A stretch of 64,000 nucleotides of DNA from Desulfobacterales bacterium (GTDB taxonomy: Bacteria > Desulfobacterota > Desulfobacteria > Desulfobacterales > UBA5852), in contig CAXXVS010000001.1 in assembly GCA_963674755.2 (NCBI GenBank), positions 1,184,001 to 1,248,000 of the forward strand. Reading direction: 5' to 3'. Under the pieces are notes generated by a model. The model had not been told where the DNA came from and did not search any database. It saw only the letters and a list, made by a program, of their open reading frames with translations. Positions 28,926 to 48,342 of the stretch are shown here, piece by piece (the first letter of the stretch is position 1; every line of letters begins with the position of its first letter). A program made the position numbers and the translations under genes.

Positions 28926-29269
28926 GCCCTGATGAATCGCCTTTCGTCGCCAAAGGACCGTCAAGATGACGTGCAGATGTGGATAACGGAGCTGGATGGC
29001 CGGGTCAAGTCTAACCTGACCGCTCCGGCGCGGTTGGCGGATCGCAGGTATGCTCAAATCGTTTGCCGAATGGTCTTCTGAGGCCTTGAAAATTGATCCG
29101 GGATACGGTAGATTGATCACCCTTTGGCTTAGCATTCCCCCATATTTTCTTGTCACAGGACCGCAGGCGTCCGGCGGCGTCCGCTGCCAAGGCGACGCCA
29201 GGGGCACGCATTGATGATCGGTCGGCGACGGCTGCCAGATCGCCGGCGATTTCAGAACAGGAGGCGCGT

Positions 29270-31234: not shown

Positions 31235-33178
31235 ATGCCAACGGTAACCTTTCTGCCCCATGAGAAATCGATCGTGGTGCCTGATGGCGAGAATCTATTG
31301 CGCGCGGCCATGGAAGCCGGCGTCCATATCAATGCCTCCTGCGGAGGGGATGGGGTTTGCGGCAAATGCCGCATCCTGATCGAGGAAGGCCGCCTGGAAG
31401 GTGGTCTCTCCGATCGCATCAGCCCGGAGGATCAGGCCAAGGGTTATCGCCTGGCCTGCCAGGCGAAAGTCGCCGGCCAAGACGTGGCCGTCCGGATTCC
31501 GGTGGAGTCCAGTATCGATGTCAGCGTGCTCAAGCGCCTGGCCACCCCCCGTCAGGCGGCCCGCATTCATCAGCCGGACTTCGAAAGCCTCAGAGAACAG
31601 GGGCTTTTCCTCCCGCCGGTGGAAGAAATCTACCTGGAACTGCCGGAGCCGAATGCGGCGGACAACCAGGCCGATGCCTCGCGATTGGTCAATTTCCTGA
31701 CCTTGAACCATAATGAACACCGGCTGGTGGTCACCATGTCCGTCATTCGCAAACTGCCGGACGTGCTTCGGGAAGATAACTTCCGGGTTACGGCCACCCT
31801 AGCCCGATCGGTGCAACCAGGACGCAAGACGCTGGTCATCAACGTTCAGCCCGGGGATGCAACGGACCGCAATTATGCCATTGCCATGGATATCGGCACC
31901 ACGACGATTTACGGGCAGCTGATCGACTTGAAAACGGGAGAGGTGTTGGCGGAAAAGGGCGATTTCAACGCCCAGATCAGCTATGGGGAAGATGTCATCA
32001 CCCGCATCATGGCGGCTGAAAAGCCGGGCGGGCTCGAAAAGCTGCACGAGGTGGTGACGACTACCATGAACAAGATCATTGCCGCTATCGTCAAACAGGC
32101 CGGTGTTCACCTGGACGACATCAATGCCATCACCCTGGCGGGTAATACCACCATGACCCAGCTTTTTCTGAAGGTGAACCCACGCTATATCCGGCGATCG
32201 CCCTATGTGCCGGCCAGCAATATCTATCCCCCGCTTCAGGCCACCGGATTGGGATTGGCATTGGGCGATCATGCGGCTGCTTTGGTCTATCCCCAGGTCT
32301 CCAGCTATGTGGGAGGGGATATCGTGGCCGGTGTCATGGGTTCCGGAATGTACCGCGCCGAACGCTTGACTCTGTTCATGGACATCGGCACCAATGCCGA
32401 GATCGTGATCGGCAACAAGGATTGGATGGCGTGCGCGGCCTGTTCGGCCGGGCCGGCCTTCGAGGGCGGGGGCATCGAGTTCGGCATGCGGGCTGCACGT
32501 GGCGCCATCGAGGATTTCTCCATTGACCCCCTGACCTATGAACCCATGAACCTCACCATCGGCAATGTACGGCCCAAAGGGATATGCGGATCAGGTTTGA
32601 TCACGACGGTGGCGGTGATGTTTGAAACAGGGGTCATCAACAACCAGGGCAAGTTCGACCGCGACTTGAAGACCGATCGCGTCCGCGAACGCGAGGGGGT
32701 ATGGGAATATGTGCTGGCCTGGCAGGAGGAAACCCAGATCGACCGCGATATCGTCCTGACCGAGATCGACATCGAAAACCTGATTCGGGCCAAAGGGGCC
32801 ATCTACAGCGGCTGCATGACCCTGCTCGAAGAAGTGGGCATGAGCATAGGGGATGTCGAACAGATCTATCTGGCGGGGGGCTTCGGCAGCTATGTGGATC
32901 TGGAAAAGGCCATGGTGATCGGCCTGCTCCCGGAAATCGACCCTGACCAGGTGACCTACATCGGCAATGCCTCTTTGCTGGGGGCGCGCATGGCGGCCCT
33001 GACCAACCGGCTGCGGCAGGACGTGGTCAATGTCACGCGTATGATGACCAATTTCGAATTGTCGGAAACCGCTTCCTACATGGATCATTATGTGGCCGCC
33101 CTTTTCTTGCCGCACACCGATTTGAATCAGTTCCCAAAACTCAAGCAAAGATTGTCCGCGTCCCGAGCAAATAGTTGA
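31235..33178 (+). CDS. acsV: Reductive activator of corrinoid Fe-S protein (RACo/AcsV; 2Fe-2S + ASKHA)
   Basis: 'CGGDGVCGKC...LACQ' ferredoxin, 'DIGTTT', 'YVGGDIVAG', 'DIGTNAE', 'CSAGPAFEG', 'GICGSG', 'LAGGFG'. Adjacent to acs genes. Confidence 0.9.
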   Translation: MPTVTFLPHEKSIVVPDGENLLRAAMEAGVHINASCGGDGVCGKCRILIEEGRLEGGLSDRISPEDQAKGYRLACQAKVAGQDVAVRIPVESSIDVSVLKRLATPRQAARIHQPDFESLREQGLFLPPVEEIYLELPEPNAADNQADASRLVNFLTLNHNEHRLVVTMSVIRKLPDVLREDNFRVTATLARSVQPGRKTLVINVQPGDATDRNYAIAMDIGTTTIYGQLIDLKTGEVLAEKGDFNAQISYGEDVITRIMAAEKPGGLEKLHEVVTTTMNKIIAAIVKQAGVHLDDINAITLAGNTTMTQLFLKVNPRYIRRSPYVPASNIYPPLQATGLGLALGDHAAALVYPQVSSYVGGDIVAGVMGSGMYRAERLTLFMDIGTNAEIVIGNKDWMACAACSAGPAFEGGGIEFGMRAARGAIEDFSIDPLTYEPMNLTIGNVRPKGICGSGLITTVAVMFETGVINNQGKFDRDLKTDRVREREGVWEYVLAWQEETQIDRDIVLTEIDIENLIRAKGAIYSGCMTLLEEVGMSIGDVEQIYLAGGFGSYVDLEKAMVIGLLPEIDPDQVTYIGNASLLGARMAALTNRLRQDVVNVTRMMTNFELSETASYMDHYVAALFLPHTDLNQFPKLKQRLSASRANS

Positions 33179-33505
33179 ATCTTTTCGATAAACTAAACGC
33201 CATTCAGGGGGAATAGGCTATTGACAAAAAACGGCGCTGAAGATAGTGAGTACTATTCGCGTCTATATAAGGATGTCCCTGCATCATTTTTGCGGGTGGT
33301 CGGTAAACAGCCGAGCACGTTGCGCTTTGAAAATATTAAGGAAAGGGGGGCTGAAGAGAGACCATCATTTACGGGCAGGGCGTTTATCAAACGCCGATTT
33401 TTGCGCGTTGATAATGCCATTCGAAAGACAGTGGTTCACTTCATTTCTGACGAGAGCTGAGGGGTAGTTCGGTGATCGGCTCTTCCCACCTATAAGGAGG
33501 TTAAA

Positions 33506-35071
33506 TTGGGCTTCGAATTTTTTAAGGAATCATATGCCGGCAGCGTAAAGGAAATCACCCTGGGCAAGGGCGATTCGGCTGTGGTCGTTGGTGGCGAAAC
33601 CTGTTACCCGTTCTACCAGTTCGAAGGCAAGATGCCCAACAAACCACGGATTGCCATGGAAATCTGGGACATAGAGCCTGATGAATGGCCGGAAGCCGCG
33701 CTGGCGCCGTTTAAAGATGTGCTGGCCGATCCAGCGGCCTGGGCCAAGAAGTGTGTGGATGACTACGGGGCGGACATGATCGTGCTGCAGCTCAAGAGCA
33801 CGGATCCCAACGGGCAGGATGCCGGCCCGGCGGACGCCGCCGCCACCGTAAAAAAAGTGCTGGCTGCCATCAAGGTGCCGCTGGTTGTTTGGGGCACCGC
33901 CAATCCCCAGAAGGATGAGGAAGTCCTCAAGAAAATTGCCGAAGAGACCCAGGGCGAACAGCTGATCATCGGTCCTGTGGAAGACAAGAACCACAAGGGC
34001 ATCGGCGCGGCCGCCATGGGGTTCGGGCATACCATCATCTCGTCCTCACCCATCGACGTCAACCTCGCCAAACAGGTCAATATTTTGCTGGAAAACCTGG
34101 GCATGCCCATGGAGCGTGTCATTATCGATCCCACCACCGGCGGTCTGGGCTACGGCATGGAATACTCTTACTCCGTCATGGAACGTCTGCGCATGGCGGC
34201 CTTGAACCAGGGCGACGACAAACTGCAGTTGCCGATCATCAACAATATTGGCAACGAGGTGTGGAAATGTAAGGAAGCCAAGCAATCGGTGGATGAAGCC
34301 CCCACCCTGGGCGATCCGGAAAAGCGCGGCATCATGATGGAAGCGGTGGCCGCCGTCAGTTATCTGATGGCCGGATCCGACGTGCTGATCATGCGTCATC
34401 CCGAATCCATCCGTTTGGTGAAAGCCTATGTCGATCTGGTTTTCAGCGGGGGCTCGGCGGGGGACGTGGCGCCGGTCAAGAAGCAGCTGGACGATGTGGA
34501 TATCGACTTGGCCGCCTTGGCGCCTGCGCCGGATCTGACCATCGAAGAAGAAAAGAAAGCGGCCCCGGCTGCCAAGAAAGCGCCGGCCGCACCCAAAGAA
34601 GCGCCCAAGGCAGCGGCCAAACCCGCCCCGGCCGCACCCCAGGAAGCGCCTAAAGCGGCCGCCCAGCCCGAACCGGTAGCGGAAGCACCCAAGGTGGACG
34701 CGGCTGCGGAAGCGGCGGCCAAGGCCAAAGCGGAAGCGGAAGCCAAGGTCAAAGCCGAGGCCGAAGCGGCGGCCAAGGCCAAGGCGACCGAGGAAGCCAA
34801 AGCCAAGGCCGAGGCGGATGCTAAGGCCAAGGCAGAGGCCGAAGCCAAAGCCAAGGCCGAGGCAGCGGCCAAGGCCAAGGCCGAAGCTACCGCCAAGATG
34901 GAAACCGAGATTGCCGAGCTTCGTGCCAAGCGTGCCAAAGAGCGTGAGGAACGGGCGGCTGCCAGAGCCGCACAGGGTCAGGAAGGAAAAACCCTGACGC
35001 CGGCCGCCATCCAGAAGGATATGGTCGAGAAGCTCATTGAAAAGGTTAACTGGGCCCATAAACGCGTGTAG
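33506..35071 (+). CDS. acsD: Corrinoid iron-sulfur protein small subunit (AcsD/CdhD) with long Ala/Lys/Glu-rich C-terminal extension
   Basis: 'VGGETCYPFYQFEG', 'SPIDVNLAKQ', 'IDPTTGGLGYGMEYSYSVMERLR', 'MRHP'. TTG start with AAGGAGG RBS. Confidence 0.92.
   Translation: MGFEFFKESYAGSVKEITLGKGDSAVVVGGETCYPFYQFEGKMPNKPRIAMEIWDIEPDEWPEAALAPFKDVLADPAAWAKKCVDDYGADMIVLQLKSTDPNGQDAGPADAAATVKKVLAAIKVPLVVWGTANPQKDEEVLKKIAEETQGEQLIIGPVEDKNHKGIGAAAMGFGHTIISSSPIDVNLAKQVNILLENLGMPMERVIIDPTTGGLGYGMEYSYSVMERLRMAALNQGDDKLQLPIINNIGNEVWKCKEAKQSVDEAPTLGDPEKRGIMMEAVAAVSYLMAGSDVLIMRHPESIRLVKAYVDLVFSGGSAGDVAPVKKQLDDVDIDLAALAPAPDLTIEEEKKAAPAAKKAPAAPKEAPKAAAKPAPAAPQEAPKAAAQPEPVAEAPKVDAAAEAAAKAKAEAEAKVKAEAEAAAKAKATEEAKAKAEADAKAKAEAEAKAKAEAAAKAKAEATAKMETEIAELRAKRAKEREERAAARAAQGQEGKTLTPAAIQKDMVEKLIEKVNWAHKRV
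34690..34900 (+). repeat. Imperfect in-frame tandem repeat (~24-nt unit, AKAKAEAE) inside acsD
   Basis: Repeated gccaaggcc/gaggc units encoding 'AAAKAKAEAEAKVKAEAEAAAKAKATEEAKAKAEADAKAKAEAEAKAKAEAAAKAKAEA'. Confidence 0.8.
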
Positions 35072-35132
35072 GGAAAGCATCGCAGAGGGGTTATTTCTGT
35101 AGAATTCTTAATAGCATGAGGAGGAACCTCGT

Positions 35133-37163
35133 ATGGCAGAAGTAAAACAAATCAAAAAAGCGGCCAAAGAAGCCAAAAAGGCCGATCCCGTCGCCGCCAG
35201 TATCGATAAGGCTACCCAGCAGATGATTGCGCGGGCTCAAGAACTGGGGGTTGAAACGGTTTTCGACCGCGCTGTTAGCATGAAACCCTGTAATATAGGT
35301 AACCAGGGCACATGCTGCAAGAATTGCAGCATGGGACCCTGCCGCCTGCCGCTGCCCAAGGATTATGACGAGTCCTCGGATGAGCGCAAGGGCCTGTGCG
35401 GAGCGACCGCCAACACCATTGCCGCCCGGAACTTCATCCGTATGGTGGCCGGCGGCGCTGCTGCTCACTCGGACCACGGCCGCAGTGTGGCCGAAGTTTT
35501 TATGTCCGCCGCCCGCAAGGAAACCGATGTTTACAAGATCAAAGACGAAGCCAAGCTGCTTCAAGTCGCCCCGGCGCTTGGGGTGGCCACCACGGTGGAA
35601 GTGGATGGGGAAGTCCAGGATCGGGACATCGACGAGATTGCCTTGGAAGTGGCCGAAGTGGCGCTTAACGAGTGGGGCAAAGCCGAGGGCGAAGTCAAAT
35701 ACCTGAAACGGGCACCGGAAGCCCGCTACGCGCTCTGGAAGAAGCAGGGCGTACTGCCGCGCAACATCGATCGTGAAATCGTAGAGATCATGCACCGTAC
35801 CCACATGGGCGTGGACCAGGACTATCACAACCTGATGAAGCAGGGCGTGCGTGCGGCCCTGGGTGACGGCTGGGGCGGTTCCATGCTGGCCACCGATCTG
35901 CAAGACATTTTGTTCGGCACTCCTTATCCCCTGGTCTCCGAAGCCAACCTGGGCGTCATGAAGGAAGACATGGTCAACCTGGTGATTCACGGTCACGAGC
36001 CGGTGCTTTCGGAAGTGATCGTGGAAGTGGCCCAGACCAAGGAGATGATCGACTATGCCAAGGAGAAGGGGGCCAAGGGCATCCAACTCTCCGGTATCTG
36101 CTGCACCGCCAACGAGATCCTGCAGCGCCACGGCGTGCCGCTGTGCGGTACCTTCCTGCAACAGGAACTGGCCATTGTGACCGGCGCCTGCGACGCCATG
36201 GTGGTGGATATCCAGTGCATCATGCAGAATATCGCCGCGGTGGCCGAATGCTTCCATACCAAGATCATCACCACCCACCCGATTGCGCGCATGGAGCAGA
36301 AGAGCGTAATCCACATCGAGTTCGACGAGCACCACGCCCTGGAAGACGCCAAACGGATCGTGAAGTTGGCCATTGACAACTTCGCCAACCGTAAGGGCAA
36401 TGTGATGATTCCCCAGCAAAAAGCCCCGGTTGTGGCCGGCTTCGGCGTGGAATCGGTACAATACCACCTGGGCGGCACCTTCCGTGGCGATTATTACACC
36501 CTCAACGACAACATCATCAACGGCCGCATCCGCGGCATTGGCGGCGTGGTGGGCTGCAACAATGCCCGCGTGCGGCACAATGAAGGCCATATCGCGGTAG
36601 TCAAGGAGTTGATCAAGAACGACGTCATCGTTCTGACCACCGGCTGCAACGCGATTGCCTGCGGCATGGAAGGGCTGCTGACGCCGGAATCGGCCAAGGT
36701 CTTCTGCGGTCCCGGCCTGGCTGAGGTCTGCGAGACCGTTGGTATCCCGCCGGTCCTGCACCTGGGCTCCTGCGTGGACAACAGCCGTATTCTGCTGGCG
36801 GCCACCGAAGTGGTCAGGGCCGGTGGCTTGGGCCATGACATCAGTGACCTGCCGGCGGCCGGCAGCGCTCCGGAATGGATGAGCGAGAAGGCCATCAGCA
36901 TCGGTCAATATTTTGTGGCCTCGGGCGTCTACACGGTCTTCGGCGCGGTGTTCCCCACCGAGGGCGCGCCTGTTTTCCAGCGCTTCCTCTTTGAAGAGAT
37001 GGAGCAGATGTATGGCGGCATGTGGGATTTCGAAAAGGATCCCATCAAACACGCCCAGAAGATGATCGCCCATATCGACAAGAAACGGGAAGCGCTCGGG
37101 ATCAACAAGGCCCGCGAGCGGGTCATGATGGATTTCTCCATGCGTCAGGCCCTGGATGTCTAA
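35133..37163 (+). CDS. cooS: Anaerobic Ni-Fe carbon monoxide dehydrogenase catalytic subunit
   Basis: D/B-cluster 'CNIGNQGTCCKNCSMGPC...GLC', 'AAHSDH', C-cluster ligands 'HGHEP', 'ICCT', 'DIQC', 'GCNN', 'TGC', 'GSCVDN', 'SEKA'. Confidence 0.96.
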   Translation: MAEVKQIKKAAKEAKKADPVAASIDKATQQMIARAQELGVETVFDRAVSMKPCNIGNQGTCCKNCSMGPCRLPLPKDYDESSDERKGLCGATANTIAARNFIRMVAGGAAAHSDHGRSVAEVFMSAARKETDVYKIKDEAKLLQVAPALGVATTVEVDGEVQDRDIDEIALEVAEVALNEWGKAEGEVKYLKRAPEARYALWKKQGVLPRNIDREIVEIMHRTHMGVDQDYHNLMKQGVRAALGDGWGGSMLATDLQDILFGTPYPLVSEANLGVMKEDMVNLVIHGHEPVLSEVIVEVAQTKEMIDYAKEKGAKGIQLSGICCTANEILQRHGVPLCGTFLQQELAIVTGACDAMVVDIQCIMQNIAAVAECFHTKIITTHPIARMEQKSVIHIEFDEHHALEDAKRIVKLAIDNFANRKGNVMIPQQKAPVVAGFGVESVQYHLGGTFRGDYYTLNDNIINGRIRGIGGVVGCNNARVRHNEGHIAVVKELIKNDVIVLTTGCNAIACGMEGLLTPESAKVFCGPGLAEVCETVGIPPVLHLGSCVDNSRILLAATEVVRAGGLGHDISDLPAAGSAPEWMSEKAISIGQYFVASGVYTVFGAVFPTEGAPVFQRFLFEEMEQMYGGMWDFEKDPIKHAQKMIAHIDKKREALGINKARERVMMDFSMRQALDV

Positions 37164-37208
37164 CCCCATTGCCGTGAAGGCTTAAAATCCTCAACGAAGG
37201 AGGAATGT

Positions 37209-39422
37209 ATGTCCAAATTAGTCGCGTTTGCCGCCATTCAGGGTGGCTATAATATTGTTTCGAAAGTTGAAGGTGATGTGAAGCAGGCCTTGGAAACCTA
37301 TAACGCCGACACTCCGGTGGGGTTTCCGAACACGGCCTACTACCTGCCGGTCATCTATTCCCTGCTGGGCATCAAAGTTGAAAAACTGGAAGACCTGGAG
37401 AAGCCGTTGGCCTTCTGCCGCAAACTGCTCCCGCCGCATGTCAAATCGCGCAACCATCTGCCTTACCTCGGGCCGCTGCTGGACGCCGGCATGGCGGCCA
37501 TCATGGCTTTCGAGATCAAGGAAGCCCTGCGTTATCTGAACGATCCGGATTTCTACTATGTTTCCGAGGAATGCGATCCGGAAAACGGCAAGCTTTGGCT
37601 GGGCGCGGCGGCCGATACCATCTTCCGGACCCGCGGCGTGGAGTTCGTGGACGGATCGGCTCCGGGGTTTGCGGCCATCGTGGGGGCGGCCCCCTCACCC
37701 GAAGTGGCCAAGGAAATCATCGAAGAATACCAGAAACGCAGCATCTACGTCTTCCTGGCGGCCAACCAGAACGGCACCAATATTTCCGAGCAGTTGGTCG
37801 AGGCCGGGGTCCAGGTGGGCTGGAACACCAAGATCGTGCCCTTCGGCCCGGACATCTCCTCGGCCGTGTTCGCCCTGGGATTCGCGAACCGTGTGGCCAT
37901 GGCTTTCGGCGGCGTCCAGCCGGGTGACTACAAGAAGATCCTCAAATACAACAAGGACCGTGTTTTCGCCTTTGTTAACGCTCTGGGCGACGTGGGCACC
38001 GAGTGGGCGGCGGCGGCGGCCGGCTGTGTCAACTGGGGTTTCCCGACCCTGGCCGACACCGACATTCCGGAAATTCTACCTACGGGTATCTGTACCTATG
38101 AGCATGTCGTGGCCAACGTGGCCCATGATGAAATGGTCCAGAAGTCGGTGGAGATCCGCGGTCTGAAGGTGACCGTTTCCGACATCGACATTCCCTGCAA
38201 CTTCGGTCCGGCCTATGAGGGCGAGCGCGTGCGCGGCGCCGATCTCTACACCCAGATGGGGGGCGGCAAGACCCAGGCCACCGAACTGGTGAAGATGGCC
38301 GAGATGAACGAGATCGAAGACGGCAAGGTCACGGTCATCGGTCCCGATATCGGCGACCTCAAGGAAGGCGATGTGTTGCCCCTGGGAATCTACGTCGAGG
38401 TGGCGGGCCGCGAAATGCAGAGCGATTTCGAGCCGATCCTGGAACGCCAGACCCACCATCTGGTGAACTACATCCAGGGCATCATGCACATGGGCCAGCG
38501 CGATATCGCCTGGGTGCGCGTGAGCAAAGCCGCCGTGGAAAAAGGGTTCACCCTGAAGGATATCGGGGTGGTGTTGCACGCCAAATACCATCAGGACTTC
38601 GGTGCTATTCTCGACAAGGTCCAGGTGACGCTCTACACCAAGAAGGAAGACGTGGATAAGCTGACCGCACGGGCGCGCGCGGAATACAAGACCCGTGACG
38701 AACGGGTGGACAAGATGACCGACGAGGATGTGGAGATTTTCTACTCCTGCACCCTGTGCCAGTCATTTGCTCCCAGCCATGTATGCGCGGTCAGCCCGGA
38801 GCGTACCGGCCTTTGCGGCGCTTACAACTGGATGGACTGTCGGGCGTCTTATCAGATCAATCCCACCGGCCCCAACCAGCCCATCGAGAAGGGCGAGGTC
38901 CTGGATGCCAAACTGGGTATGTTCAAGGGCGTCAACGAGTTTGTTGCCAAAGCGTCCCGCGGCGCCATCACCCAGTATAACTTCTACTCCATGGTACACG
39001 AGCCCATGACGACCTGCGGGTGCTGTGAGTGTATTGCGGCCATGCTGCCGTCCTGTAACGGTGTCATGACGGTCAACCGCGAGTACACCGGGGAGACCCC
39101 CTGCGGGATGAAGTTCACCACCCTGGCGGGTGTCATGGGCGGCGGGGCCTCCTCGCCAGGCTTCGTGGGCCACTCCAAGTACAACATCACCCAACGCAAG
39201 TTTATCGTCGGCGACGGCGGGCTCCTGCGCATGGTCTGGATGCCCAAAATGCTGAAGGATGAAATCCGGGAGCGCCTGATTCAGCGCGGTACCGAAATGG
39301 GCGATCCGGAGCTGGTGGATAAAATCGCCGACGAAACGGTGGGGATCACCGAGGAAGAGATCATGCCCTTCCTGCAGGAAAAGGGGCATCCGGCGTTGTC
39401 CATGCCGCCGATTATCGGTTAG
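37209..39422 (+). CDS. acsB: Acetyl-CoA synthase (bacterial type, with N-terminal domain)
   Basis: 'FPNTAYYLP', A-cluster 'CTLCQSFAPSHVC...GLCGA' and 'PMTTCGCCEC', 'TPCGMKF'. Confidence 0.96.
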   Translation: MSKLVAFAAIQGGYNIVSKVEGDVKQALETYNADTPVGFPNTAYYLPVIYSLLGIKVEKLEDLEKPLAFCRKLLPPHVKSRNHLPYLGPLLDAGMAAIMAFEIKEALRYLNDPDFYYVSEECDPENGKLWLGAAADTIFRTRGVEFVDGSAPGFAAIVGAAPSPEVAKEIIEEYQKRSIYVFLAANQNGTNISEQLVEAGVQVGWNTKIVPFGPDISSAVFALGFANRVAMAFGGVQPGDYKKILKYNKDRVFAFVNALGDVGTEWAAAAAGCVNWGFPTLADTDIPEILPTGICTYEHVVANVAHDEMVQKSVEIRGLKVTVSDIDIPCNFGPAYEGERVRGADLYTQMGGGKTQATELVKMAEMNEIEDGKVTVIGPDIGDLKEGDVLPLGIYVEVAGREMQSDFEPILERQTHHLVNYIQGIMHMGQRDIAWVRVSKAAVEKGFTLKDIGVVLHAKYHQDFGAILDKVQVTLYTKKEDVDKLTARARAEYKTRDERVDKMTDEDVEIFYSCTLCQSFAPSHVCAVSPERTGLCGAYNWMDCRASYQINPTGPNQPIEKGEVLDAKLGMFKGVNEFVAKASRGAITQYNFYSMVHEPMTTCGCCECIAAMLPSCNGVMTVNREYTGETPCGMKFTTLAGVMGGGASSPGFVGHSKYNITQRKFIVGDGGLLRMVWMPKMLKDEIRERLIQRGTEMGDPELVDKIADETVGITEEEIMPFLQEKGHPALSMPPIIG

Positions 39423-39440
39423 TGGCGGAATGTCTACCCC

Positions 39441-39477
39441 GACCGACCGGGGCGACGTTTTCGTCCCCCGGCCGGTC
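39441..39477 (+). other. GC-rich intergenic stem-loop between acsB and acsC
   Basis: GACCGACCGGGGCGACG-TTTT-CGTCCCCCGGCCGGTC forms an imperfect hairpin without a U-tract. Confidence 0.55.
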
Positions 39478-39546
39478 ATGATGTTGATCCTAATATTGCA
39501 TACGCAACGGTTCTAAATAGCGCTGAACAACAGCAAGGAGAAAACC

Positions 39547-40887
39547 ATGGCATTAACCGGTATTCAGATTTTTAAACTCCTGCCGAAAACCAATTGCAAG
39601 GAATGCGGTGTGCCGACTTGCCTGGCCTTTGCCATGAACCTGGCATCGGGCAAGGCCGAGCTGGACAGTTGCCCCTATGTCTCCGATGAAGCCCGCGAAA
39701 AACTGGCGGAAGCCTCGGCCCCGCCGATCCGCCCCGTGGTGCTGGGCGCCGGGGTACGCAAGACCACCGTGGGCGGGGAAACCGTCCTCTACCGGCACGA
39801 AAAAACATTTTTCAATCCCACAGCCCTGGCCGCTCTGGTAACTTCCGACACGGCCGAGGCCGATCTGACCGCTAAGCTCAAAGGCTGGAACGCCCTCCAG
39901 TTCGAACGGGTGGGCCTCAACCTGCGTCCCGAACTCGTGGCGCTCAAGGATGTCAGCGGCGATGCCGCGGCCTTTGCCAAACTGGCCAAACTGGTGGCCG
40001 AAACCTCGGAGTTCAACCTGGTGTTGATGAGTGACGGCGTGGATGTCCTGAAAGCCGGGGCCGAAGCCTGCGCCTTCAAACATCCCCTGCTTTACGCTGC
40101 CACGGAAAGCACGGTGGATGCGCTGGGTGCGCTGGCCAAGGAGATGGGGCTGCCGCTGGCCGTCAAGGCCGATTCGGTGGAAGCGCTGGTACCCCTGACC
40201 ACCAAGCTGACCGAGATGGGGTTGAAGGACATCGTGCTGGATGCAGGCTCCCGTGATGTCAAAGGCTCGCTGGACGACCAGGTGGCCATCCGCCGGGCCG
40301 CCCTCAAAGATCTCAACCGGGCGGTGGGCTTTCCGACGATTACCTTCCCCTGTGAAATGGCCTCCAATCTGGACATGGAAACATTGCTGGCCGGGCAGTT
40401 TATCGCCAAATACGGCGGAATCGTTGTCCTGTCGGATTTTGTCGGCGATTCCCTGTTCCCGCTGCTGTTGGAACGCTTGAACATCTATACCGACCCCCAG
40501 CGGCCCATGACCGTGACCGAGGGCATTTTCGAAATCAACAACCCGGACGAGAATTCGCCGGTGCTGGTGACCACCAACTTCGCCCTGACCTACTTCATCG
40601 TGTCCGGCGAGATCGAAGCCAGCAAGGTGCCCGCCTGGCTGCTGATCAAGGATTCCGAAGGGTTGTCGGTCCTTACCGCATGGGCGGCCGGCAAATTTGC
40701 CGGCGACGATGTGGGCATGTTCGTCAAGAAGAGCGGCATCATGGACAAGGTCAAACATACCGAACTGATTATCCCCGGTTACGCGGCTGCTATTGCCGGT
40801 GATGTGGAAGAAGAACTGCCTGGCTGGACCATTACGGTGGGGCCGCGTGAGGCCGCCCATCTGCCCGGCTTTCTCCGCGGGCGGTAA
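39547..40887 (+). CDS. acsC: Corrinoid iron-sulfur protein large subunit (AcsC/CdhE)
   Basis: 'LPKTNCKECGVPTCLAFAM...CPY', 'IYTDPQRP', 'VTTNFALTYF', 'GLSVLTAWAAGKF', 'VGPREA'. Confidence 0.96.
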   Translation: MALTGIQIFKLLPKTNCKECGVPTCLAFAMNLASGKAELDSCPYVSDEAREKLAEASAPPIRPVVLGAGVRKTTVGGETVLYRHEKTFFNPTALAALVTSDTAEADLTAKLKGWNALQFERVGLNLRPELVALKDVSGDAAAFAKLAKLVAETSEFNLVLMSDGVDVLKAGAEACAFKHPLLYAATESTVDALGALAKEMGLPLAVKADSVEALVPLTTKLTEMGLKDIVLDAGSRDVKGSLDDQVAIRRAALKDLNRAVGFPTITFPCEMASNLDMETLLAGQFIAKYGGIVVLSDFVGDSLFPLLLERLNIYTDPQRPMTVTEGIFEINNPDENSPVLVTTNFALTYFIVSGEIEASKVPAWLLIKDSEGLSVLTAWAAGKFAGDDVGMFVKKSGIMDKVKHTELIIPGYAAAIAGDVEEELPGWTITVGPREAAHLPGFLRGR

Positions 40888-40985
40888 TTTTTTATATCGC
40901 TGCCGGTTTTACAGGGGCGGTGCTGGTTCAAGGCCGCCCAAGCCCAATCGGCCAGGAAACAAAGCCTACGAGAGAGGGAGGTTCT

Positions 40986-41882
40986 ATGCTACTGTTTGGT
41001 GAAAGTTTGAATGTGATTTCCACGAAGATCGGCCGTGCCTTCAAGGAGCGGGACCCCAAGCCGATCCAGGAAGAGGCCCTGTTTCAGAAAGAAAAACGGA
41101 TGGACTACATCGACATCAACCTGGGACCGGCCAAGAAGGACGGCCACGAATTGATGCCCTGGGTGGTGGAGGTGGTTCAGGATGTTGTGCCTGATTTGCC
41201 CCTGTTGTTGGACACATCCAATATCGACGCCATCGAAGCCGCTTTGAAAGTGATCAAACAGGTGCCCAGCGGCACGCCGCATATCATCAACTCCATCATG
41301 GTGCGGCCGGAGCGCTATGAGCGCATGGTTCCCATGGCGGCCGAACACAATGCCGACTTCGTCGCTTTGATGTGGGGCCCCGAGGGGCTGCCCCGGGATG
41401 AAAACGAACGCGCGGCCCTGTGCGTCGAACTGCTTTATTTCGCCAACGAGGCCGGCATTCCCAACGAGAAAATCTGGGTGGACGGTATCGTTACCCCCGT
41501 CAATATCCAGCAGCCTCAGGCCATCAGCCTGATGGAATTCCAGAAGATGATTCCGGACATGGCCCCCGGCGCCCGGAGCACCTGCGGCCTGTCCAATATT
41601 TCCAACGGTCCGCCTGACCACCTGCGGCCCATTCTTAACCAGACGTACACTGTGATGCTGATGAAATGCGGCATGGAATCGATCATCTCGGATCCCCGCG
41701 ACGAGCTGCTCACCGCCATCTGCAAGGGTGAGCGCCAGGACATCGTGGATCTGATTTACGGCATGTTGGACGGGCAGGCACCGGATGTGGGTGGACTTTC
41801 CGAAGAGCTGCTGAAATACAAGAAGACGGTCGATGTCATCCTGGGCAATACGCTTTACTCGGATTCATGGCTGGAGGTCTAA
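40986..41882 (+). CDS. acsE: Methyltetrahydrofolate:corrinoid Fe-S protein methyltransferase (MeTr)
   Basis: Pterin-binding barrel motifs 'GESLN', 'DINLG', 'LDTSN', 'IINS', 'GLSNISNG'. Last gene before a terminator in the acs cluster. Confidence 0.88.
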   Translation: MLLFGESLNVISTKIGRAFKERDPKPIQEEALFQKEKRMDYIDINLGPAKKDGHELMPWVVEVVQDVVPDLPLLLDTSNIDAIEAALKVIKQVPSGTPHIINSIMVRPERYERMVPMAAEHNADFVALMWGPEGLPRDENERAALCVELLYFANEAGIPNEKIWVDGIVTPVNIQQPQAISLMEFQKMIPDMAPGARSTCGLSNISNGPPDHLRPILNQTYTVMLMKCGMESIISDPRDELLTAICKGERQDIVDLIYGMLDGQAPDVGGLSEELLKYKKTVDVILGNTLYSDSWLEV

Positions 41883-41913
41883 ACCCCTGCCCTGCCTTCA
41901 CCGATGGATGCAT

Positions 41914-41943
41914 AAAAAGCCCTTCCACCGGGAAGGGCTTTTT
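41914..41943. terminator. Bidirectional-type rho-independent terminator after acsE
   Basis: AAAAAGCCCTTCC-ACCG-GGAAGGGCTTTTT, a perfect hairpin with A/U tracts. Confidence 0.88.
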
Positions 41944-42026
41944 GTACTTTTGCCCAGACGGTTGGCCGCGGCGGTGCTTTAGCCGCCCCGCAGCCTCCTG
42001 CCACAAAAGAAAGGATCGGAATTCCC

Positions 42027-42644
42027 ATGGCCAGGGTTGACGATTATCGGGCCGCGCGTGCGCTGGCGGCCGATACGCTGTCGGAGCAGACCATTGCCGC
42101 AATCAGTGAACGGACCGGTCTGGTCTGCCGGGATGACGATCACTTGGAAATCCGCTTTTTGGACCGCCGCTATGGGATCCGTTATCCGGAATTCGAATTC
42201 GAGGATTTGGAGGCCGCGGAGCGGGAGATCCCCCTCCAGGAACAGGTTCTGATCCTCCATTACATGCTGGGGGCCGACCCCCGACGAATCCCGGGCGATA
42301 TGATCGCCTATCGCGAAATTCCCGGGGCGTCCTTCTATTTCGGCCCTTTCGTCAAGCGGGCGGTCAATCCGCTGAAAGAAACCTTCGGCCGGAATCTGGA
42401 AGCGTTTCACCGGGCCTGTCGGGCTTTGGCGGGATCGCCCATCGATGCGGGCGATGCCGGCTATCGGTTCCAGGTTTTCCCCCAGCTGGCCATGCATTAT
42501 ATTCTCTGGGAAGGCGATGAAGAATTCGATCCCGAAGCGAATATTTTGTTCAATGAAGCGACCGGGGAGTGTTTGTCGCCGGAGGACGCCGCCTGGCTGG
42601 CCGGGATGGTGGTTTACCGCTTGATGGCCCTCAGCCGCGGTTAA
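42027..42644 (+). CDS. DUF3786 domain protein
   Basis: 'QVLILHY', 'YREIPGASFYFGPF', 'WEGDEEF..EANILF', 'EDAA'. Confidence 0.75.
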   Translation: MARVDDYRAARALAADTLSEQTIAAISERTGLVCRDDDHLEIRFLDRRYGIRYPEFEFEDLEAAEREIPLQEQVLILHYMLGADPRRIPGDMIAYREIPGASFYFGPFVKRAVNPLKETFGRNLEAFHRACRALAGSPIDAGDAGYRFQVFPQLAMHYILWEGDEEFDPEANILFNEATGECLSPEDAAWLAGMVVYRLMALSRG

Positions 42645-42804: not shown

Positions 42805-45800
42805 ATGATCCGCTCCAAAGCGCTGGAAGTCAATATAGCGGATTACCACGTCGATGTGAAAATCGACCCGCAGTATGCCGTCCTGCAGGAGGTGATGGCG
42901 ACCTATTTCGGTTTGCAGGAAGGTTTGACCACCTTTCTAAAAGAATTATCCCATCCTTACAAGAACTGGAAATTTATCGTCAAGGAAGCCCGCATCTACT
43001 CCCTTGACTATTTCCATCTGATCCGATCCCACTCCGAGGGACCACGCGCGGCCCAGATCTATATCGATATCTATCTGCGCGCCATTGAATCCACCCGTAC
43101 CACTGATGTCTGCATTGATGCGGTGGACAATTTGATGCTCCTCCTGCTGAAGATTGTCAAAGAATCGGGGGAGGTCTTCGAGTGCTTTGCGTCCGTTCTG
43201 GACGACGCTTTACGGAGCATCCGCCGCTATGACAGCGCAATTTTCATGGTGTTTCTTAAAAGCTACTACCAGCTGAACCGGCTCGGCGAGGCCGCCTTGA
43301 AGCTGGGTCCTCCCCATCTCGAACAGCTGCCGCATCTGAATTTGCTGCTGATACGGTTTTTTCAGGACAGCTATGCCTACTGGATGAAGGAAGAAGACCC
43401 GCAGCAGTGGTTTGAAAAGGAGGCCGATAAGTTTAGACCGGACGCCGATCTGGCAGCGGTTTTCGACGCCATCGCGCATGCGACCCTGCAGCGCTATCGT
43501 CAGCGGTTGGACGATATCCTCCACTGTGAAGACATCCGTTCCCCGGAAGTACTCGAGCGTCTTCTCGACATGCCGGGATTCAATCAGATCGTTCAAGCCC
43601 ACCGCGAGATTCCGGACCGCTTGAGCACGCTCGGCCAAAAAAACGGGCGCGGTGAGCTCTACCGGCTGTTGTTTCTGTTTTACCAGATGAATCTGGAAGG
43701 ATTGTCCATCGTTCACGAAGAAGCCCTGCGGGATATCAATCGGGCCCTGACCTGGATCATCGACAACGAAAAGCCATGGCATATCCGGCGGCTGATCGAG
43801 AAAACGTTCTCCATTCTCAAGGAGCGGGCGGCGATTTTCCCAACCACCTCCCTCAATTGTGTCCTGAATATGGGCAAGGGCGTCTACCGTACCCAGGATA
43901 TCGATTTTATCAATTTTTTCATCGATCAGGTCATCGACCTGGGCTTCCAGGCACCCAACATCGGCGGGGTGGGCAACGACTGGCAAATCCAGGTCAATAG
44001 CGCCCATCTGCAGAATATCAGGACCTGGCTGGAGCTGATCGAGCTCAGCCCCAAACGTTCCACACGACTTATGAGCTACCTGATCATTCAGGTGGCCATC
44101 TGCGGGGTTTTCATCAAGGACACCGATCTTTTCCCCAGGGACATCACCCACTTTTTAAACAGCGGTATCGAGCCGGTTTATAATATCGCCAAACAGCTGG
44201 CCCGGTTGTTTCCGGTCTATTTCAACGATATCGGCGCGGAAGGGAAACTGCGGGACATTTCCACCCAGCTTGACGAGATCAATCACCGCAAGGATGTCCT
44301 GCTGCATTTCCTGCGCAAACAATGCCATGTGGAGAGCAGCAATCGCATCATCAATTTCATGGAGGCGGTGCTGCATTTCTGGCAGACGCGCGACAAAGAG
44401 CCGCTGCGGCCTTTTACACCCCCCAACATTTTCAGCGATATCGAAAGTGCAGGATCCTATATTGATGGGGTCCACATTGCCATGCAGCGGCTTAAGGAAC
44501 GCGGTCTGGGAGAGCTTGATGTGTTATTGCGGATTCCCGACGAAGGGTTGCAGAACGTCCTGGCGGAATACGATGAAATCAAGCCCATCGATCGGGAACG
44601 GGTCTATCTGGCCGTCATTTTCTACAAATTGCTCAATCAGAAATACAACATCGATTTCATCGAACTGGGACATTATATCGCCCAGTTGAAGAGTGACGGC
44701 TTTCCCGGGCTGGAAGCCCTGGAGAGTGTGCTGGAAGTGAGCGATTCCCGGGAGAAAATGCGCGGTCTGCTCGATGCCCAGGAGGAACTCAAGGCCATCA
44801 TCCTTTCAGCCAAGACTTTTGAAATCCGCGAGGACATATACAAAAAACGCCATTTCACGATCGATATCCCTTCCATGTACGGCAGCTATCACGAAATGAA
44901 GTTCAACGCGCTGGGGCTGGCCTTCCGGCTGGAATCGTTGACCAATGTGCTGTTGGAAAAACTCATCCGGCGGATCGATTTAAGTCTCATCACCCGGGCG
45001 ACGTTTTACCATATTTATGACCTGCTGCTGCTCTTCCAGCGGGCCCTGGCGCTGGACGGCATCGCCTCCAAAGAATTCGAGCGGCAGCTGGAAATGCTGG
45101 CCCACGCCCTGGAGGCCCGCGGATTCACTTTTACCCAATACCTGGATGTCCTGCGGGGCTTCGCGACTGCCGTCAAGAACATCATCAATGACTACTTCAA
45201 CAATATCCACGAGCAGAACCTGGACCGCATCATCCATCGCACGCCCCCGGATCAGATTCTGCCCAAGTACCTGCCGGCGGACGGCGGGACGGAAAAAGAG
45301 GGGCAGCACCACCGTATCTCGGAGATCTTTTTTCGGGATTTGCTATCCTTATCATTGGGTCTGCGGCAGCTGGATCTCTTCCTCAGCCGGATCCTGACGA
45401 CGCTTTTCCATCAGTCGGCCAAGATTCCCAAAGACAGTCTCCACAGCCTGTTGAACTATGACCCTCAGCGGGCCTTGACGTCGCTGGTGATTCCCAACGA
45501 GCGGGTGCACGGTATCATCTACCTCGGCAATAAGGGACTCAACATGCTGAAACTGACCGGTTTCGGCTTTCCGGTGCCGCCGGGGTTTATCGTGACCACC
45601 GAAGTCTTTCGGTGCCGGGAGGTCATCGAACGCTATCCGGCCGCGGAAGCCAATTTCCGGGACCAGGTGGCGCGGCACATCGCGCTCTTGGAAAACCAGA
45701 CCGGCAAAAAATTCGGCAATGCCCGTAACCCCTTGATGCTTTCCGTGCGTAGCGGCTCATCCATTTCCCAGCCCGGCATGATGGATACCTTTCTGGACGT

Positions 45801-46983
45801 GGGCATCAACGAAGAGATCGCCGCCGGACTGGCGGTCAAAACCGGCAATGCCTGGTTTGCCTGGGACAACTACCGCCGCTTCCTGCAATGCTGGGGTATG
45901 TCCTTCGACCTGCAGCGCGACGATTTCGATGCCATCATGGGCGAGTTCAAAAATCGGTTCGGTACGCCGCTCAAACGCGGCTTCAGCGGCGAGCAGATGC
46001 AGCAGGTGGCCCTGACCTACAAGGAAATGATCCGGGAGGCCGGCATTCTGGTGCCCGAGGACCCCTTCGAGCAGTTGGTGCTGACCACCATGCGGGTGCT
46101 GCAGTCCTGGGAATCCACCAAGGCCCAAACCTACCGCAAGATCATGGGGATTTCCGATGACTGGGGCACGGCCGTCACGATCCAGCAAATGGTTTTCGGC
46201 AATGTCTCTCAGAAGTCCGGCTCAGGCGTGATTTTTACCCATAATCCGCGCTGGTCGGGGGATACTTTGCGCTTATGGGGCGATTTTACCATCGAGAACC
46301 AGGGCGAAGACGTGGTGGCCGGCCTCGTGACCACCTTGCCCATTTCCGTCATCCAGCAGGAGACCGAGATGCGGGATACGGATATTACCCTGGAAACCCA
46401 CTTTCCTAACATTTTTGCGGCGCTGGAAGGGTTTGCGCGGGATCTGGTCTTCAAACGGGGGTGGAGCCCCCAGGAGATGGAGTTCACCTTCGAGGGCGAC
46501 CGCGGCGAAGATCTTTACATCCTCCAGAGCAGGGACATGGCCATCCGGGAGCGCAAGAAATTCATGATGTTCGACCATGAGGAACTCGGCCGCAAACATC
46601 CCATCGGCCATGGCATCGGTGTCAGCGGCGGCGCCATGAGCGGGCGCCTGGTATTCACCCTGGACGAGATCGACTATTGGCGCAAACTGGAGCCCGGGAC
46701 GTCGTTGATCTTGGCCCGCGCGGATACGGTTCCGGATGATATCCGTGAAATCCACGCCGCGGACGGTTTGCTGACATCGCGTGGGGGGCTGACGTCCCAT
46801 GCCGCCGTGGTGGCCCATCGCCTGGGACGGACCGGTGTGGTCGGCTGCGGGGAGCTGATCTGCGACGAGAAGAAGAAGATCTGCCACATCAGTGAAGCGA
46901 TTCTCAGCTCGGGGGATTACATCAGCATCAACGGACAGGAAGGATCGGTATACCAGGGATTGATCAAAGTCGAAGAGACATGA
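42805..46983 (+). CDS. PPDK-related dikinase: ~900-aa unknown N-terminal region + ATP-grasp + phospho-His domain, no pyruvate-binding domain
   Basis: 'LGNKG', 'PVPPGF', 'SVRSG..SQPGMMDT', 'QQMVFGN', 'SGSGV.FT', 'QGEDVVAG', 'EFT', 'ILQSR', 'GGLTSHAAVVA'. The protein ends about 60 aa after the His. Confidence 0.85.
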   Translation: MIRSKALEVNIADYHVDVKIDPQYAVLQEVMATYFGLQEGLTTFLKELSHPYKNWKFIVKEARIYSLDYFHLIRSHSEGPRAAQIYIDIYLRAIESTRTTDVCIDAVDNLMLLLLKIVKESGEVFECFASVLDDALRSIRRYDSAIFMVFLKSYYQLNRLGEAALKLGPPHLEQLPHLNLLLIRFFQDSYAYWMKEEDPQQWFEKEADKFRPDADLAAVFDAIAHATLQRYRQRLDDILHCEDIRSPEVLERLLDMPGFNQIVQAHREIPDRLSTLGQKNGRGELYRLLFLFYQMNLEGLSIVHEEALRDINRALTWIIDNEKPWHIRRLIEKTFSILKERAAIFPTTSLNCVLNMGKGVYRTQDIDFINFFIDQVIDLGFQAPNIGGVGNDWQIQVNSAHLQNIRTWLELIELSPKRSTRLMSYLIIQVAICGVFIKDTDLFPRDITHFLNSGIEPVYNIAKQLARLFPVYFNDIGAEGKLRDISTQLDEINHRKDVLLHFLRKQCHVESSNRIINFMEAVLHFWQTRDKEPLRPFTPPNIFSDIESAGSYIDGVHIAMQRLKERGLGELDVLLRIPDEGLQNVLAEYDEIKPIDRERVYLAVIFYKLLNQKYNIDFIELGHYIAQLKSDGFPGLEALESVLEVSDSREKMRGLLDAQEELKAIILSAKTFEIREDIYKKRHFTIDIPSMYGSYHEMKFNALGLAFRLESLTNVLLEKLIRRIDLSLITRATFYHIYDLLLLFQRALALDGIASKEFERQLEMLAHALEARGFTFTQYLDVLRGFATAVKNIINDYFNNIHEQNLDRIIHRTPPDQILPKYLPADGGTEKEGQHHRISEIFFRDLLSLSLGLRQLDLFLSRILTTLFHQSAKIPKDSLHSLLNYDPQRALTSLVIPNERVHGIIYLGNKGLNMLKLTGFGFPVPPGFIVTTEVFRCREVIERYPAAEANFRDQVARHIALLENQTGKKFGNARNPLMLSVRSGSSISQPGMMDTFLDVGINEEIAAGLAVKTGNAWFAWDNYRRFLQCWGMSFDLQRDDFDAIMGEFKNRFGTPLKRGFSGEQMQQVALTYKEMIREAGILVPEDPFEQLVLTTMRVLQSWESTKAQTYRKIMGISDDWGTAVTIQQMVFGNVSQKSGSGVIFTHNPRWSGDTLRLWGDFTIENQGEDVVAGLVTTLPISVIQQETEMRDTDITLETHFPNIFAALEGFARDLVFKRGWSPQEMEFTFEGDRGEDLYILQSRDMAIRERKKFMMFDHEELGRKHPIGHGIGVSGGAMSGRLVFTLDEIDYWRKLEPGTSLILARADTVPDDIREIHAADGLLTSRGGLTSHAAVVAHRLGRTGVVGCGELICDEKKKICHISEAILSSGDYISINGQEGSVYQGLIKVEET

Positions 46984-47076
46984 TGGGGCAACGGGTGCTT
47001 TCCGCGCAGCGGTTCCGGGAGACCGCCAAGCGGGATCGTGGGCAACCGCGACCGACAACACTACGGGGGAGAAGAC

Positions 47077-48342
47077 ATGCAACAGTCAGCGGATAGGGGA
47101 CGGGGAGGCAAACTGGGCGTCAACGGGTTCGGGCGGATTGGCAAGCTGACCGTGTGGTACCATGTGGCCCGTAAATTTTTCAGCGAAATCTACGTCAACA
47201 TCGGCCGCGAGGCGGGTACGGGCATGGCCGATCTGGCCCATTATGTGGAAAGGGACTCTTCCTACGGTCGTCTGGGCCAGTTTCTTTACGGTCACCGGCA
47301 GTCTTCGGTGATCGAAGCCATCGACGAGGCGAACCATTGCCTGACCATCGACGGGATCAAGGTGCACTTTCTCAAAACGGCCCGCAATCCGTCCGCTATC
47401 GGCTGGCGCGACCACGATGTGAAACTGGTGGTGGAAACGACGGGCCGGTTTCTGGATCCCACCCTGCCCCCCGATCATCCGGCCGGGGCGGTGCGCGGGC
47501 ACCTGGAAGCCGGGGCGAATATCGTGGTGGTCTCCGCCCCTTTCAAGATCAAGGATAAGGGCCAGCCCATGCCGGAAGATGCGATCACGACGGTCATGGG
47601 GATCAATGCCAACGACTTTGATCCGCGCCGTCACCGGCTCGTGTCCAATGCGTCCTGCACCACGACCTGTCTGGCCCACATGGTCAAGCCGCTCCTCAAC
47701 TACTTCGGCCCCAAGCGGATTCTGTCCGCCTCCATGGCCACCGTGCATTCGGCGACCGGGTCCCAGGCCGTACTGGACCGGCTGCCGAAAACAGGCGTTA
47801 AAGATCTGCGCAAAAATCGCAGCATCATGAACAACATCATCCTGACCACCACCGGGGCGGCCAATGCCCTGCGCCTGGTCATTCCCGAGATGGAGGAGAT
47901 CGGGTTCATCGCCGAGTCGGTCCGGGTGCCTACGGCCACCGGATCGTTGATCATTCTGGTGCTGGACGTCCAGGAGGAGATGGGCGGCGAGCCTGTCCGG
48001 CGGGACACCATCAACACGATTTATCGGCAGACCGCCGCGATGGATCCCCACGGCTATTTGCATTTTTCCGAGAAACAGAACGTCTCCGGCGATATCGTGG
48101 GCTATCCCCGGGCCGCCACCATTATCGAAGGACACGAAACCCACACCCGTACGGCCGAGGTGACCTTCAATCTCAGCAATCTCACCGGGGTGCCCGACAG
48201 CGTTCTGGAGGCGGTCAAGGGGCATGTCTACCGGATTCCGATCACCCAGGTCGTCACCTATGGCTGGTATGACAACGAGATGGGAAGCTATGTGAACATG
48301 CTGGGAGACCGGGCGGTCAGCGTGGCGGAACACATGATGTAG
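47077..48342 (+). CDS. Divergent glyceraldehyde-3-phosphate dehydrogenase family protein
   Basis: 'GVNGFGRIG', 'ETTG.F', 'VSAP', catalytic 'SNASCTTTCLA', 'TTTGAA', 'RVPT', 'WYDNE'. Confidence 0.88.
   Translation: MQQSADRGRGGKLGVNGFGRIGKLTVWYHVARKFFSEIYVNIGREAGTGMADLAHYVERDSSYGRLGQFLYGHRQSSVIEAIDEANHCLTIDGIKVHFLKTARNPSAIGWRDHDVKLVVETTGRFLDPTLPPDHPAGAVRGHLEAGANIVVVSAPFKIKDKGQPMPEDAITTVMGINANDFDPRRHRLVSNASCTTTCLAHMVKPLLNYFGPKRILSASMATVHSATGSQAVLDRLPKTGVKDLRKNRSIMNNIILTTTGAANALRLVIPEMEEIGFIAESVRVPTATGSLIILVLDVQEEMGGEPVRRDTINTIYRQTAAMDPHGYLHFSEKQNVSGDIVGYPRAATIIEGHETHTRTAEVTFNLSNLTGVPDSVLEAVKGHVYRIPITQVVTYGWYDNEMGSYVNMLGDRAVSVAEHMM

Follow-up and report, generated by a model that had tools for sequence, protein, structure and literature searches.

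In pyruvate, phosphate dikinase (PPDK; EC 2.7.9.1; TIGR01828; structures 1KBL/1DIK), an ATP-grasp domain is followed by a swivelling phosphohistidine (His) domain and a C-terminal barrel for pyruvate or phosphoenolpyruvate (PEP), and the ATP-grasp and His pair has been described as reused with other acceptor domains in RPH, HpeHI and glucan, water dikinase (GWD) (PMC12167813; PMC13553574). Another example is VadK (Rv1127c, a truncated PPDK) of Mycobacterium tuberculosis, a barrel-less, PPDK-derived ATP-grasp and His protein with autophosphorylation activity and with metabolic enzymes as interaction partners (PMC13400623). Here, we describe a 1392-residue dikinase-like protein encoded in a 64,000-nucleotide stretch of a Desulfobacterales genome (assembly GCA_963674755.2, contig CAXXVS010000001.1, positions 1,184,001 to 1,248,000 of the forward strand; hereafter the window), together with the divergent member of the glyceraldehyde-3-phosphate dehydrogenase (GAPDH) family encoded directly downstream, hereafter the long GAPDH. 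This pair is real, widespread and mis-annotated. As a tentative reading, which we hold at somewhat less than an even chance, the dikinase acts on 3-phosphoglycerate and so provides the long GAPDH, probably an NADP-linked enzyme, with 1,3-bisphosphoglycerate. The features of the pair are as follows.

42805..46983, plus strand: barrel-less dikinase-like protein, whole gene, 1392 aa (from Pfam, TIGRFAM, PPDK structure alignment, and family length and architecture)
42862..44184, plus strand: predicted alpha-solenoid, HEAT/ARM-like, residues ~20-460, possible scaffold (AlphaFold2 model, generic solenoid matches)
43957..44964, plus strand: conserved core, residues 385-720, predicted acceptor site (conservation, AlphaFold2 model)
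44962..45429, plus strand: predicted four-helix bundle joining the ATP-grasp, residues ~720-875, with R844 and D857 invariant (model, alignment)
45523..46536, plus strand: PPDK-type ATP-grasp with K910, R982, E1226, Q1241, R1243 and a short SVRSG..PGMMDT loop (alignment)
46600..46974, plus strand: swivelling phospho-His domain, H1332 codon 46798-46800, T1330 at the PPDK regulatory position (Pfam, alignment)
47077..48342, plus strand: long GAPDH, 421 aa, with C194, H224, T227, T259-G260 and R283 kept and N-x-G-R replacing N-D-L (alignment, tree)

The catalytic half of the dikinase lies exactly where the original prediction had placed it, with PPDK-like motifs beginning at residue 908 (GNKG, nt 45526), GGLTSHAA beginning at residue 1327, the histidine H1332 at nt 46798 and the end of the protein at residue 1392. 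Pfam assigns PPDK_N to residues 948-1194 (PF01326, 98.3 against a cut-off of 27) and PEP-utilizers to residues 1302-1380 (PF00391, 55.8 against 23.1), both above cut-off and on the same chain, while the PEP/pyruvate barrel PF02896 has no Pfam match anywhere in the 1392 residues. When aligned with the PPDK of Clostridium symbiosum, residues 907-1391 pair with chain residues 19-514 only (E 1e-89), ending at the start of the barrel, which bears out its predicted absence. Residues K910, R982, E1226, Q1241, R1243, H1332 and T1330 correspond in this alignment to K22, R92, E323, Q335, R337, H455 and T453 of the C. symbiosum enzyme, where they have catalytic roles; K910 is present in 55/55 aligned family sequences, R982, E1226, Q1241, R1243 and H1332 each in 54/55, and T1330 in 52/55. 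The nucleotide loop is of the short PPDK type, unlike the PEP-synthase type, a distinction drawn in PMC12167813, and this suggests Pi-dependent, reversible chemistry.

While the ATP-grasp and His order is common to PPDK and the dikinase, the latter lacks the C-terminal barrel, has a shorter link from grasp to His, carries an additional N-terminal helical region of about 900 residues and is tied to one GAPDH clade. RPH and the phenol dikinases HpeHI, CreHI and PpsAB also join the ATP-grasp and swivelling His to a different acceptor domain, but their order is grasp-acceptor-His, or split in two, as opposed to helical region-grasp-His, and they have a PEP-synthase-like loop and Met at the regulatory Thr (PMC12167813). 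Their phosphorylation targets are hydroxyls rather than carboxylates. Glucan, water dikinase 1 is similar in its length of ~1400 aa and in having an all-helical acceptor domain N-terminal of its His and ATP modules, but its order is CBM-CBM-central-His-ATP (PMC13553574; CBM, carbohydrate-binding module), as opposed to helical region-ATP-His with no CBM, CBM45 modules included. Each family model scores below its cut-off on the dikinase, including TIGR01828 for PPDK (391.5 against 843.45) and NF041857 for RPH (32.7 against 999). The same is true of NF004531 (PRK05878; 293.5 bits against 456), which we take to be the family of VadK. On the sequence features tested, the dikinase is thus a member of the swivelling-His dikinase superfamily that lies outside PPDK, VadK/PRK05878, RPH and GWD.

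The barrel-less architecture is, across the homologues found, a family trait and no chance truncation, because many homologues share the length and the two-domain architecture. With residues 1-890 as query, 1280 of the 8000 scored candidates matched; among the 120 matches listed, most are ~1390-1420 aa long and carry both of these Pfam domains. Representatives at the 50%-identity level, searched in full, gave 580 at E <= 0.001, and the 150 listed include many full-length proteins at 27-53% identity; representatives as distant as 27% identity are mostly 1335-1540 aa, and the C-terminal tail after the aligned end is at most 17 residues in all 55 aligned homologues. The nearest relatives are metagenome-assembled genomes of Desulfobacterales, cultured carriers include Desulfosarcina variabilis, D. 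alkanivorans, D. cetonica and Desulfatitalea alkaliphila, and members with taxon names (2/10 looked-up clusters) come from Bacteroidales (Tenuifilaceae) and Ca. Delongbacteria. Source annotations name the family PPDK or 'PEP/pyruvate-binding domain protein'; the warning that an automatic 'PPDK' label would be wrong holds as a family call, given the TIGR01828 score and the separate full PPDK in the same genome.

Variants of the dikinase were also seen. An N-terminal hemerythrin domain of ~140 aa is carried by two members (P0152 and P0155) and may hint at O2 or redox control; similar N-extensions occur in P0149, P0167 and P0177, with hemerythrin not detected in P0149. A divergent subfamily (f61; L194:7182-11759, L195:7792-12438, L196:6119-10711, L197:6460-10956; open frames of 1499-1549 aa) keeps part of the core (the equivalents of H401, R483 and R504) and the His in GGRGAH. 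No GAPDH lies in the stretches analysed around it, its genomes gave no long GAPDH at E <= 1e-70, and it may have a different acceptor.

The host genome encodes its own full PPDK (TIGR01828 1269.7, cut-off as above), PtsI, PtsP, phosphoglycerate kinase (PGK) and two other, ordinary GAPDHs. That the dikinase is a pyruvate/PEP dikinase after all, its pyruvate domain being non-homologous or its barrel acting in trans, would agree with an ATP-grasp closest to that of PPDK, with a gluconeogenic operon as a natural setting for such an enzyme, and with the 4/80 tested genomes that have no PF02896 protein. We nevertheless regard this as very improbable, since the host has a full PPDK, PF02896 proteins occur in 76/80 genomes with GTP-dependent PEP carboxykinase (GTP-PEPCK) in all 4 that lack them, and the strict tie to a single GAPDH clade would be left unexplained. 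The two other PF02896 barrels of the host belong to PtsI and a GAF-PtsP, and a split PPDK with a free barrel was rejected for this genome, which has no stand-alone barrel. The PPDK regulatory protein (PF03618) was found in 1/5 genomes tested and shows no general link to the dikinase as its controller. Five more PF01326 proteins of the host lack a PF02896 match and are dikinase-like (G000:C2:414542-417184, C3:2210563-2213235, C2:549827-552949, C2:861739 and C2:2102304).

The second gene of the pair starts, as predicted, 93 nt past the dikinase stop on the same strand, at ATG 47077 after a purine-rich stretch like a ribosome-binding site, with an in-frame GTG at 47038 as an alternative start. 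Among 301 genomes of the phylum, whose counts include kin and are hence not independent, the dikinase was found in 88, its divergent subfamily in 4 more and the long GAPDH in 90; 87 have both, 1 has the dikinase only (an assembly of 290 contigs, G129), 3 the long GAPDH only (G103, G256, G284), 4 the divergent subfamily only and 206 neither. The carriers are spread over many families of the phylum, and the two genes co-occur even where they lie hundreds of kb apart (G012, G255, G194). In close loci (80 in total) the long GAPDH lies downstream in 70/70 with enough downstream DNA, 69 of these within 500 nt, so that the two genes can be called conserved partners, a point that the original prediction had left to be checked. 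It was likewise found in 52 of 77 distant metagenome loci, or 37/47 of those flanked on each side by 1.5 kb or more; the GAPDH family (66/77) is the only widely recurring neighbour there, and ordinary gap occurs in 25. Among 17 hand-picked loci from other families, chosen partly for pgk seen nearby, the long GAPDH is present in 14, an ordinary gap in 11, and both pgk and tpi within the same 18-20 kb in 11; one of these arrangements (L097) reads gap-dikinase-long GAPDH-pgk-tpi, and the long GAPDH immediately precedes pgk in several genomes.

Some loci depart from this order. The dikinase of G064 (L201:4951-9064) is split over two frames with a break near residue 602, and G284 (L200) has no dikinase between two GAPDH genes, so that dikinase loss appears to be under way in the family of these two genomes. 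On a single-contig genome (G097), long GAPDH-pgk occurs twice (C1:505500-507924 and 1777503-1779927) with identical scores, which points either to a recent duplication or to a repeat in the assembly. In several families, the gap/dikinase block is often immediately preceded by genes for RapZ, a PTS EIIA and a GNAT acetyltransferase (L097:15281-17080, L100:13113-14922, L112:4256-5653, L114:4620-5756).

The long GAPDH keeps the catalytic residues (C194, H224) and the phosphate-site residues of a GAPDH, with C194, H224, T227, T259 and G260 in 69/69 close homologues and R283 in 68/69, yet the long GAPDHs form a separate clade far from ordinary GAPDH (SH-aLRT 100; quick tree, midpoint root), with clade-specific conserved insertions and an invariant H356. 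It scores under the cut-offs of type I GAPDH (TIGR01534, 312.7 against 367.2), erythrose-4-phosphate dehydrogenase (TIGR01532, 117.5 against 530.55) and ArsJ-linked GAPDH (NF033735, 172.7 against 450). At the Asp32 position, G-R (N-x-G-R) was found in 33/33 long GAPDHs as opposed to N-D in 23/23 ordinary ones. Because Asp32, a contact of the NAD 2'-hydroxyl (PMC3728087), is absent, it is a fair guess that the long GAPDH prefers NADP(H). Direction-specialised GAPDH pairs are known (PMC12663938), in which, as here, a second GAPDH stands beside an NAD-type one (GapA/GapB of Bacillus subtilis and of Pseudomonas putida). The long GAPDH differs from these in being ~75 residues longer, with conserved insertions and in its own clade, and the known pairs share PGK without a dedicated dikinase. 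Its best PDB match is 8wwz, 'GAPDH 2', which we take to be B. subtilis GapB, NADP-linked and gluconeogenic.

The long GAPDH likely handles glyceraldehyde 3-phosphate, because it is the sole PF02800 match in 3/80 genomes (G026 and G064, both single contigs, and the draft G065; 80 of the 95 genomes with either gene were tested). The same substrate is favoured by the neighbouring short GAPDH of G095 and G284, in which the usual ASCTT and TTG motifs are lost. The short GAPDHs of family f36 (L202:11702-12712, L200:6587-7591) have a long branch, SSCISN for ASCTTN and no TTG phosphate site, and the f36 copy beside the pair is seemingly lost in G026 and G064.

These features bear on a further possibility, that the dikinase is a small-molecule dikinase with another acceptor, whether another carboxylate that is reduced to its aldehyde (such as 4-phosphoerythronate, formate or acetate), a triose, or the cofactor itself (NAD to NADP). 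The large insertions of the long GAPDH, its substitutions near the substrate site (K246 instead of the usual Arg; E/D280), its distance from ordinary GAPDH with a TIGR01534 score below cut-off, and the acs cluster adjoining in 38/66 close loci would all suit such an acceptor, and the large N-terminal domain could accommodate a dinucleotide. As opposed to this, T227, R283 and T259-G260 of the glyceraldehyde 3-phosphate/Pi sites are kept, the long GAPDH is the sole GAPDH-family match in G026 and G064 and directly precedes pgk in several genomes, no other pathway gene is conserved nearby in the distant loci, and the erythrose-4-phosphate dehydrogenase model scores far below its cut-off. We consider another acceptor distinctly unlikely.

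The N-terminal 900 residues, which the original prediction took for a novel substrate-binding domain, are conserved and confidently modelled, with invariant residues of catalytic appearance, while the novelty of the fold stands at the level of prediction. AlphaFold2 models of the N-terminal region (109 sequences; pLDDT 91.1, pTM 0.83) are almost entirely helical, with a single hairpin at 675-696, and the core 385-720 modelled alone reached pLDDT 95.7 and pTM 0.92. Since the model is almost all helix, a permuted TIM barrel, the alternative that had been named for residues 1-900, was ruled out. Fold searches with the whole region returned generic solenoids only (Foldseek, TMq <= 0.18); structure alignment placed residues ~20-460 loosely on solenoids (Z <= 8.7) and 720-875 on four-helix bundles, at background scores, and the best VIA-align Z values (9.2 for the whole region, 7.0 for the core) were to helical bundles and within background. 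With the core alone, Foldseek gave zero matches at E <= 0.001, and residues 385-615 are hardly covered by the listed fold-search rows. A search of PDB sequences with a 62-sequence profile of residues 1-900 found nothing better than designed helical repeats (E 0.051), a PHROGs search with residues 1-900 found nothing, and the ESM Atlas returned only unnamed or PPDK_N-bearing clusters under 0.9, with no usable named match for the core. No RPH chain is among the listed fold-search matches, an absence that does not exclude an RPH-type fold, and no GWD chain is among them either, GWD chains being possibly missing from the libraries. Taken together with the models, a new fold is likely.

The core carries the motifs HFLRKQxHxES (nt 44305) and KRH..IPSMYG (nt 44845), and fourteen positions of the N-terminal region are invariant in 55/55 sequences (H401, D439, R483, D490, R504, K505, H508, K613, Y614, K681, H683, S690, R844, D857). 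Because invariant basic and acidic residues sit in a confidently folded core, we infer that this Arg/Lys/His/Asp core forms an anion-binding acceptor site, whereas the predicted solenoid suggests protein binding.

It is the solenoid, together with VadK, that raises a different explanation, namely that the dikinase is an energy-sensing regulator, which would autophosphorylate according to ATP/AMP/PPi and bind or phosphorylate the long GAPDH via the solenoid, switching flux between GAPDHs (a VadK-like kinase with a CP12-like scaffold). This rival, which was missed by the original prediction, has a published precedent in VadK. A regulatory role would also fit the resemblance of the modelled solenoid to protein-binding folds, the one-sided dependence of the pair (87/88 dikinase genomes with the long GAPDH, 3 genomes with the GAPDH alone), the constant retention of PGK, the frequent adjacency of ordinary gap (11/17 picked and 25/77 distant loci), and the clade-specific insertions and invariant H356 of the long GAPDH. 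However, VadK (~50 kDa) lacks any extra domain and has enzymes of the methylcitrate cycle, not GAPDH, as partners, and phosphate transfer to a partner is not shown in the accessible part of the VadK paper (PMC13400623). In addition, a 330-residue core with invariant R/K/H/D across 27-70% identity looks more like a catalytic small-anion site than a docking surface. We regard the regulator as unlikely, though it is the main rival.

The 3-phosphoglycerate reading is favoured because of the gap-pgk-tpi context. The idea that the dikinase makes 1,3-bisphosphoglycerate had been put forward in the original prediction and stands as the best single guess, but the accompanying proposal that it bypasses PGK as a replacement fails, since PGK is present in 298/301 genomes and in 88/88 dikinase genomes, and the three genomes without PGK are also without the dikinase. 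The overall reaction would be 3-phosphoglycerate + ATP + Pi -> 1,3-bisphosphoglycerate + AMP + PPi. By analogy with PPDK, H1332 would take the beta-phosphate of ATP and Pi the gamma-phosphate, after which the His domain would swing to a group of basic residues in the N-terminal core (R483, R504, K505, H508, K681, R682, H683) that would bind the anionic acceptor. The labile acyl phosphate would then be handed to the long GAPDH and reduced to glyceraldehyde 3-phosphate, perhaps within a dikinase-GAPDH complex held together by the solenoid and the insertions of the GAPDH.

In the gluconeogenic direction the PGK step is uphill by ~19 kJ/mol at standard values, while a dikinase coupled to PPi hydrolysis would bring it to ~10-15 kJ/mol downhill, spending a second phosphoanhydride in the way that PPDK does with pyruvate. 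Such a difference would be a reason for keeping both lanes: at low energy charge PGK on its own is a poor driver of the step, which removal of PPi would pull, and the pair would run in parallel with PGK and the NAD-type GAPDH without replacing them. In reverse, the pair would convert AMP and PPi into ATP. The fuller proposal, of a new lower-glycolysis activity (3-phosphoglycerate, phosphate dikinase) with a new-fold acceptor domain, the first swivelling-His maker of an acyl phosphate, channelled with an NADP-GAPDH into a second, PPi/AMP-coupled lane that would serve energy-limited anaerobes alongside the textbook route, is put forward a little more cautiously still.

Several observations weigh against 3-phosphoglycerate as the acceptor. 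With PGK in every dikinase genome, only energetics or direction would save the enzyme from redundancy; the 77 distant loci yielded neither pgk nor tpi, and the 80 close ones no pgk. About 900 residues are far beyond the need of a C3 acid, and the modelled solenoid suggests protein binding. On the GAPDH side, 3/90 genomes have the long GAPDH without a dikinase, K246 and E/D280 make another aldehyde possible, and the NADP preference is read from motifs under a rule that is loose, because the chloroplast NADPH GAPDH keeps Asp32 (PMC3728087).

Upstream of the dikinase, the window carries the genes of the Wood-Ljungdahl pathway, as had been noted.

31235..42644, plus strand: Wood-Ljungdahl cluster, acsV, acsD, CODH, acsB, acsC, acsE and DUF3786 (context only, upstream of the dikinase)

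The acs/CODH genes (31235-41882) and then DUF3786 directly precede the pair, but the special link to this pathway and to acetyl-CoA that had been drawn from this position did not survive comparison across loci. With acs upstream in 38/66 close loci, 1/17 hand-picked loci and 0/77 distant loci (acsB and acsE tested), an essential link was rejected and the position is lineage-specific, though compatible with an anabolic role downstream of acetyl-CoA. Contigs from one metatranscriptome (2/7 runs), which cannot show absence or level, include near-identical pieces on acs and almost none on the pair. No plasmid match was found that would point to a mobile element, and a promoter and terminator scan gave numbers near those of the shuffled control (7 vs 3.9 and 5 vs 7.7). 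Within the cluster, AcsD (521 aa, 33506-35071) has a long Ala/Glu/Lys-rich C-terminal extension with a TolA-like match at 347-513 and variable repeats in metatranscriptome contigs near 34700-34890. An acetyl-CoA hydrolase/transferase fused to a GNAT acetyltransferase (29150-31159) lies directly upstream of acsV.

A literature search, mostly at title and abstract level and with subscription journals excepted, found no description of this family or of a 3-phosphoglycerate dikinase; the term 'phosphoglycerate dikinase' was met once, in a rice proteomics paper, and one supplement of a D. multivorans proteome paper contained no match to the genes. The PGK-GAPDH step is regarded as near-universal and settled in bacteria, and 87/301 of the sampled genomes of this phylum carry a two-gene addition to it. 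Since databases label the first of these genes 'pyruvate, phosphate dikinase', it has probably been given the wrong reaction in models of sulfate-reducer and syntroph metabolism. If the regulator reading were true, the pair would represent a new control of GAPDH by phosphohistidine. If the 3-phosphoglycerate dikinase reading were true, the reaction would be new and would link gluconeogenesis to the AMP/PPi pool in organisms that live close to the energy limit; for engineered carbon fixation, it could ease a bottleneck that is already known.

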